This document shows, one piece after another, positions 1,548 to 2,340 of a DNA stretch of 4,394 nt; the stretch's first letter is position 1, and every line of letters begins with the position of its first letter. This stretch comes from Escherichia coli (GTDB lineage Bacteria; Pseudomonadota; Gammaproteobacteria; Enterobacterales; Enterobacteriaceae), in NCBI RefSeq assembly GCF_044324785.1, contig NZ_CP172132.1; one strand, given 5' to 3'. A model generated the notes under the pieces. It was not told the origin of the DNA. It ran no database searches and worked only from the letters and a program-made list of their open reading frames with translations. A program made the translations under genes and the position numbers.

Positions 1548-2340
1548 AAGTGTAAGGAAGTACCTGATTTATTTTACATATTGACCATCAATAACTGAGC
1601 AAAAAAAAAAAAAATAACAAAACCATGACATAGATACAACCTATTTTTCCTGTGCAAGATTACCTCGTTTGCCATAAAACTCCGTTCTTCAGCTCAAGGA
1701 AAATTTTGAAAACCATAGCGTGTATCACTATATGAATGAATATATTGTTGCCATATTGTAGTGTAATATTTATTATTTTTTGACTGTTTTTAGTTTATTA
1801 TTTTATTTTTTCTATATTTCCAAAGATAATCTTTTTATATTCTGTTTCTCGATACTAGACATAAAATCAAATTCACGATAAATATTAATTGCGCGTTTCT
1901 GCCCCCCCCACACCTACTAATTACTACCTGTGTTTAGTTACACAATCAGAAACGCGCTTTTTAAGCGTTAAAATAGCGTGATGAACTCCTACAGATATTC
2001 AAATACCTCTACGTCATCGTGAAAGGACGCGCTTTGCCAGAGGCGAGGTTTTGTTTTCAAGTGTGCCCTGGTGCTTGATATCCATCCCGTCCTGAAGGTT
2101 GGAGATTCCTACGTTGCTCAGGCTTGCTCTTTAGTCACACATGAGTCACTTCGATGGGGGACTGCTGCTGGCGGCATTAACGCATCTCTCACGTCAAGTA
2201 ACACAAGTAATGTTCGACATGGTTTGCCATACCGCTCTCTAAAATCGATTTTGACGCAATTTATTTACTTGGTAGTACCATTGCATACCTGACACCAAAA
2301 AAACGAACCAGAGGGCGTTTTAGATGCCTTAAAATCGATT

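Follow-up and report, generated by a model that had tools for sequence, protein, structure and literature searches.

Homopolymer runs in ORFs or in promoter spacers make up the contingency loci of Neisseria, Haemophilus and Bordetella. A run of 14–15 bases is unusually long for Escherichia coli. Two papers (PMC3315296; PMC1378130) describe simple-sequence repeats (SSRs), in general terms, as indel hotspots. For STAXI, an Rfam family represented on the DNA described here, the Rfam text excerpted in PMC12370729 suggests that it may act as single-stranded DNA.

Here, we describe three homopolymer runs in a stretch of 4,394 nt of E. coli DNA, hereafter called the window. With a probability of roughly 0.7, they are ordinary slippage-prone repeats in non-coding plasmid DNA, probably neutral, which switch neither a gene nor a promoter. 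The A14 run, the C8 run and the T run at 1806–1811 would thus be mononucleotide SSRs, and we infer that their lengths change by slipped-strand mispairing in replication and that such changes have, most likely, little or no effect on fitness.

The plasmid and its homopolymer runs

By sequence comparison, the window is a complete circular small E. coli plasmid of ~4.39 kb, because a metagenome contig (MAVC01000034.1, called L057 below; 4433 nt with a 47-nt terminal overlap) matches all of it as a circular permutation. Apart from the Rep3 family, no Pfam match of a window ORF passes the cut-off, and ~3.7 of the 4.4 kb is non-coding, conserved and hairpin-rich. Positions 558–3553 are ~91% identical to six PLSDB plasmid records of 5.3–5.6 kb (one of them an 11-kb dimer record), which encode a MobQ relaxase or a LysE-family gene at the place occupied in the window by 1–557. 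A seventh related record, GF60, was found by a RefSeq E. coli search. Over 1500–2100, identity to the relatives is 98–99%. The window and L057 differ at 41 sites, 31 of which are clustered in a patch at 169–531 (~360 nt) that looks like a recombined segment and overlaps a match to EFASI; this patch could be of use in testing EFASI covariation. The nine sites in the remaining 3.9 kb are four substitutions and five homopolymer indels.

The original prediction drew attention to two tracts, A14 and C8, as rare, and it had their coordinates exactly right. First-order Markov simulation of the window (5000 replicates) gives P = 0.001 for an A/T run of 14 or longer; for a C/G run of 8 or longer it gives P = 0.05 with the whole window and P = 0.005 with the local AT-rich composition, taken from 1500–2000. 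The A14 run is clearly non-random and the C8 run moderately so. Further runs of at least 8 in the window are A8 at 761–768, A8 at 1522–1529 and T9 at 3097–3105. The features discussed below are collected in Table 1.

Table 1. Runs, hairpins and other features of the window (L007 and L015 are homologous sequences in their own coordinates).
Feature	Position	Strand	Remarks
A14 run	1601–1614		polymorphic, 8–15 among relatives; putatively from an interrupted ATAC-A6/7 segment
C8 run	1902–1909		alleles C8 and C7; C5 in a distant homologue; predicted unpaired inside a hairpin stem
Third variable run, T6	1806–1811		shortest allele in the window, T7–T9 in relatives; absent from the original prediction
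Conserved non-coding module with the A run	1519–1641	minus	ends in a terminator on the minus strand
Terminator-like hairpin	1522–1547 (stem-loop 1547–1529)	minus	terminator scan; T8 tail is the invariant A8 run 1522–1529
Small hydrophobic ORF across the A run	1574–1675	minus	33 aa; T14 read as FFFF
Small hydrophobic ORF	1780–1881	plus	33 aa
AT-rich spacer	1642–1890		GC 0.22–0.28; promoter-like hexamers on both strands; variable T run
Hairpin H1	910–975	plus	GGGGTGTTTCTGTA / TACAGAAACATCCCC; without a T run
Hairpin H2 (first pair of the original prediction)	1356–1418	plus	GTTTCTG/CAGAAAC; inside the long inverted repeat 1197–1509
Hairpin H3	1891–1962	plus	11-bp stem GCGCGTTTCTG/CAGAAACGCGC; 45-nt interior starting with the C run; T5 at 1958–1962
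Hairpin H4	3935–3989	plus	paired change GTTTCCG/CGGAAAC; ~100 nt upstream of the STAXI match
Further hairpin family members	L007 1658–1730; L015 5242–5316		
rep, Rep3-family initiator	2341–3033	minus	Pfam Rep3_N 8e-39, Rep3_C 2e-19
Four 22-bp iterons adjoining rep	3128–3215		repeat search

Run lengths in related plasmids

Run lengths were measured by flank-anchored patterns in the window, GF60, six plasmid records from five strains and two metagenome contigs (Table 2); the two TUM1886 records, like the two copies in the Ch1 dimer record, may be non-independent. The metagenome contigs come from a scan with a 17-mer, which gave 63 matches, 53 of them chance matches; the 10 real ones are L057 (a near-identical whole plasmid), L042 (a relative) and eight more distant copies.

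Table 2. Lengths of the three variable runs.
Plasmid or contig	Type	A run	T run	C run
Window		14	6	8
LH10-b-1 (pLH10-b-1-G)	MobQ	15	8	8
TUM1886, both records	MobQ	10	8	8
Ch1, both copies of dimer record	MobQ	9	8	8
TUM9803	LysE	8	7	7
LH50-c	LysE	9	9	7
GF60	LysE	9	8	7
L042	metagenome	9	7	not matched
L057	metagenome	10	7	7

In the seven independent RefSeq/GenBank plasmids, the window included, the A run measures 8, 9, 9, 9, 10, 14 (the window) and 15. A comparison among isolates had been proposed as a check on the idea that both tracts are hotspots of slipped-strand length variation. Made here, it gives 8–15 for the A run and 7 or 8 for the C run, so that the idea holds for the A run, which varies while control runs are constant, and only weakly for the C run with its two alleles. 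When 1500–2100 of the window is aligned with the six plasmid records, indels are confined to the A, T and C runs.

Are these differences real? If homopolymers were mis-called in long-read or flow-based data, the length differences would be artefacts of sequencing or assembly and the true runs would be invariant. The warning of sequencing error that came with the original prediction is fair in this respect: L057 has T4 where the nine other copies all have T5, and hence its homopolymer lengths are unreliable. Four further runs differ between L057 and the window, all but one being shorter in L057; homopolymer indels account for five of its nine differences outside the recombined patch, and long runs are the most difficult to call. 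However, the control runs A8 1522–1529, A7 2297–2303, T6 1776–1781 and T5 1108–1112 are constant across the complete plasmids, while the A run spans a 7-base range, and thus assembly error alone is an unlikely cause of that range. In addition, a long allele occurs independently in the window and in pLH10-b-1-G, and C7 or C8 goes with the plasmid lineage (LysE-type or MobQ-type, respectively), which is expected if the difference is inherited. It is therefore unlikely that artefact explains the variation, and from these alignments we take the polymorphism of the A run to be real, although the exact lengths of the long runs, which come from assembled sequences, are not guaranteed. Of the complete plasmids, only those of LysE type have C7, so that one change passed on by descent accounts better for the C7/C8 difference than rapid switching does.

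The module around the A run

The A run lies within a module of ~120 nt that is ~80% identical in 8.9-kb ColE1-like plasmids (e.g., pSMS35_8) and in IncK2/Z-type conjugative plasmids. In these two other families the corresponding segment is interrupted, reading GAGC-ATAC-A6-TAAC in seven copies and GAGC-ATAC-A7-TAAC in three, and the interrupted form ATACAAAAAA(A) is invariant within each family over the 10 copies. Since the homologous segments are interrupted, the pure run in the family of the window probably arose by loss of the interruptions; since they never vary, purity of the run appears to drive its instability. An ancestral GAGC-ATAC-A6/7-TAAC segment would thus have lost its interruptions to become a pure and unstable A run, which would then have drifted to 8–15 among isolates, the window carrying a long allele. 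Most alleles (8–10) are near the presumed ancestral length of 10–11 nt and those of 14–15 would be expansions; the clustering at 8–10 could reflect a weak constraint on length.

The conservation of the module over three plasmid families suggests that it has a function, and neutrality of the run length is accordingly an assumption of the slippage reading rather than a demonstrated property. At one end of the module is the terminator-like hairpin, whose position, T tail and preceding AATCAGnnAnTTCCTTACACT are kept in the other plasmid families; its stem is CCCTCA/TGAGGG here and CCCTCT/AGAGGG in pSMS35_8, one compensatory pair change. The terminator is a hint that the minus strand is transcribed, which would turn the A run into a stretch of U. 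Such a small RNA would extend from ~1725 or 1641 to the terminator (1547–1522), and the A run would be a U-rich single-stranded segment of it, the length of which could tune chaperone binding, stability or transcriptional slippage. Besides the conserved terminator and module, two minus-strand promoter-like sites, at 1767–1739 and 1754–1727, are consistent with this possibility. However, these sites are weak evidence for a promoter and are not conserved with distant homologues, and a range of 8–15 argues against tight tuning. The whole region folds no better than shuffled sequences (z = +0.32), for which reason a structured minus-strand RNA was rejected, and an Rfam cmscan gave no match at E ≤ 1 in 1500–2100, its matches being limited to 4098–4271, 357–510, 115–185 and 3854–3939. 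A run-length-tuned small RNA is thus rather improbable. Inverted repeat I5 would pair the A run with the T run; the two are only 71% complementary and of low complexity, their lengths do not co-vary, and the repeat was treated as chance.

The modules around the runs, namely the one ending in the minus-strand terminator and the GTTTCYG hairpins found near STAXI and EFASI, are common to this Rep-only plasmid and to the co-resident ColE1-like and IncK2/Z-type plasmids. They might be elements, acting as RNA or single-stranded DNA, that let the small plasmid use a helper plasmid for priming, establishment or transfer, and run length could then tune the interaction; we give this only a slim chance. 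An attempt to place the homologous island of an IncK2/Z plasmid in a leading region found the locus broken by IS elements, with no nikAB or oriT adjacent.

The distribution of the module among strains was recorded as well. All six RefSeq strains carrying a plasmid of the window type (LH10-b-1, TUM1886, TUM9803, LH50-c, Ch1 and GF60) have a second plasmid with a homologue of 1519–1641, an 8.9-kb ColE1-like plasmid and/or a 130–170-kb IncK2/Z-type plasmid, and any match is found in only 36 of 5426 genomes. This co-occurrence could come from dependence, from recombination between co-residents or from a shared poultry niche.

Coding and promoter context

In ordinary slippage, the reading preferred here, nothing is switched by the runs. 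Could they instead be phase-variation switches of a small gene or a promoter, as in the contingency loci of Neisseria and Haemophilus? Polymorphism of length among isolates is what such switches would show, small hydrophobic ORFs cross the runs, and the AT-rich spacer contains hexamers resembling promoter elements. However, the only ORFs across the runs are of 33 aa or fewer, they have no Pfam match, and neither their start nor their frame is kept in the pSMS35_8 homologue. Among promoter-like sites with a 16–18 nt spacer, none spans the A run or the C run, and the promoter-like sites of the region are at chance level (7 found versus 7.0 expected in shuffles). The only gene, rep, lies more than 430 nt from the C8 run on the other strand, and it is its 3′ end, not its start, that faces the runs. 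With no ORF, promoter spacer or regulated gene attached, the runs lack what defines phase variation, and it is very unlikely that they are switches of this kind.

Two more specific roles were rejected. A small toxic peptide or type I toxin encoded by the 33-aa minus-strand ORF with its FFFF stretch is contradicted by alleles that differ by non-multiples of three, by the unconserved frame and start and by the lack of a Pfam match. As for a promoter spacer, a manual and automatic search of both strands found no 16–19-nt spacing for any allele. Homology of the AT-rich spacer at 1642–1890 is limited to close relatives, except for 1857–1885.

The C run and the hairpin family

The C8 run was originally described as lying inside the spacer of the second CGCGTTTCTG/CAGAAACGCG pair (1892–1901/1947–1956), and indeed it directly follows the left arm. 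The repeat extends to 11 nt at 1891–1901 and 1947–1957, and it belongs to the GTTTCYG...CRGAAAC hairpin family. The window contains six copies of GTTTCTG, arranged in three inverted pairs; the expected number is 0.76, and none of 200 shuffles reached six. The core spans of the eight family members are 49, 53, 55, 55, 57, 58, 59 and 59 nt. Their flanks differ among copies and stay complementary (GCGCG/CGCGC, GCGTG/CACGC), as in the homologues of H1 (L007 2143–2211 and L015 3597–3670), their interiors are unrelated in sequence, and a T run lies downstream on the plus strand in most copies. Homologous GTTTCYG hairpins are present in pSMS35_8 and the IncK2/Z plasmids, and the family has no Rfam match.

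RNA folding of 1815–1975 gives z = –2.99, with 2 of 200 shuffles folding as well, and places the C run unpaired just inside the stem. From C4 to C12 the stem of H3 stays intact in the predicted fold with an energy shift of ~2 kcal/mol or less, and C7 and C8 differ by 0.1 kcal/mol. A distant homologue has C5 at this place (L015 ~4093–4097). In the C run, an unpaired loop segment may have grown from C5 to C7/8, in a hairpin with non-conserved loop length. Complementary variable flanks, unrelated interiors, variable spans and a tolerant fold together indicate, by these folding models, that the arms pair with each other, in RNA or in single-stranded DNA, rather than serving as spaced protein half-sites; because loop length is not conserved, a change of one base in the C run should be tolerated. 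The GTTTCYG hairpins are possible terminators or single-strand priming signals.

The further claim that changes in the C run would alter half-site spacing finds no support, the arms being 45 nt apart in a family with a core span of 49–59 nt and the C run being predicted unpaired. That the arms are half-sites of a DNA-binding protein, for which the C-run length would set spacing and helical phase, is barely credible: the excess of GTTTCTG and the conservation of the core sequence itself among copies speak for it, but arms lie 41–45 nt apart with varying core spans where an inverted-repeat operator has a fixed short spacing, the variable yet complementary flanks, GTTTCCG/CGGAAAC included, favor pairing of the arms, and a T run comes after most copies on the plus strand.

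Other conserved parts of the plasmid

Two Rfam families are matched elsewhere on the plasmid. STAXI (RF01728) has a full-length match at 4098–4271 on the plus strand (78.9 bits, E = 5e-16), and EFASI (RF02957) matches 357–510, also on the plus strand, with 48.6 bits, below its gathering score of 51.2. Going downstream from STAXI over the circular junction, EFASI follows after ~480 nt, in agreement with the arrangement given by Rfam, and the EFASI qPCR primers published in PMC12370729 match 389–408 and 458–477 exactly.

A long inverted repeat has arms of 51 nt at 1197–1247 and 1459–1509, which are 92% complementary and enclose 211 nt. The 326-nt stretch with these arms folds as single-stranded DNA at –102.7 kcal/mol (z = –16.6). 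The arm (TTGACATCCTCC..CCCTGAAGGACGGGGTTTTACGGCGCACCG) is present as a single copy in 607 plasmid records, mostly of conjugative plasmids, with IncI2, pESI-like Salmonella, Pantoea and Xylella plasmids among them, and degenerate copies lie at 642–682 and ~2074–2100 of the window. No target-site duplication was seen at the repeat, and a literature search for the conserved arm sequence found no paper.

Three plasmid families share a distantly conserved unit of ~400 nt (window 700–1112, L015 3385–3815, L007 1929–2360), in the order of a conserved start CCTTAAnnTTATCGAAAACACGnATTTTAGT, an A-rich stretch, hairpin H1 and a plus-strand terminator (1084–1112 here). For one plasmid the PGAP annotation has a hypothetical protein of 108 aa there, in a frame that is not conserved. 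The unit is possibly a non-coding RNA gene.

The 3′ end of rep (stop codon 2341–2343) carries a 21-nt inverted repeat, 2238–2258/2325–2345, which is 90% complementary and centered on AAAATCGATTTT. At 3495–3555, CGCTTCCTCGTCGATTCGCTCGCTACGCTCGGTCATCGACTTGCGGCGAGCGG resembles what we take to be the pBR322/ColE1 region with a PriA-type primosome assembly site beside the ColE1 origin, and the adjoining 3550–3960 is common to hundreds of small Col-type plasmids.

Implications

Within this plasmid family no sites change faster than the A run (8–15) and the T run (6–9), which are possible markers for fine-scale typing. They could also serve as quality checks on homopolymer calling in assemblies. The practical value is modest. 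The family provides an example of a stable interrupted run that turned unstable once pure. The non-coding modules surrounding the runs are a more intriguing lead than the runs themselves, and the larger question concerns the ~3.7 of 4.4 kb taken up by conserved hairpin-rich non-coding modules that are common to co-resident plasmids.

Comparison with known systems

The single-stranded-DNA promoters Frpo and ssi of plasmid leading regions (Masai and Arai, 1997; Samuel et al., 2024, PMC11541004) share with the modules here that they are long non-coding stretches of transferable plasmids and form hairpins; the region here also has synteny with non-coding islands of conjugative plasmids. In contrast, Frpo elements are GC-rich and the run region is AT-rich. 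Assignment to this class was rejected by blastn of ColIb-P9 Frpo1 and Frpo2 and F ssiD and ssiE, taken from Supplementary Table 2 of PMC11541004, against the window: the best E-values are 0.1–0.6 and the matches are 26 nt or shorter, similarity being the criterion used in that paper.

STAXI and EFASI share the plasmid with the runs, and STAXI is closely preceded by a GTTTCYG hairpin, in an IncK2/Z plasmid as well as here; however, the run region 1500–2100 matches neither of them, nor any other Rfam family. Intrinsic terminators resemble H3 in its GC-rich 11-bp stem followed by T5, and the minus-strand hairpin 1547–1529 with its T8 tail fits the classical pattern. H3 is unlike them in having an interior of 45 nt, far above the loop of a terminator, and in not being called by the terminator scan, and H1 lacks a T run.

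With contingency loci the runs share hypermutability and several length alleles (A 8, 9, 10, 14 and 15; T 6–9; C 7 or 8), but they have no linked ORF, no promoter spacer and no switched downstream gene. The likeness to polymorphic mononucleotide SSRs is in the pure and non-coding nature of the run, in lengths that differ between near-identical isolates, in the stability of interrupted homologues and in an indel rate that appears to rise with run length and purity. The difference is that the run here is on a multicopy plasmid, so that mixed alleles per cell could occur. The runs appear to control nothing, and in their behavior they match ordinary repeats of this kind.
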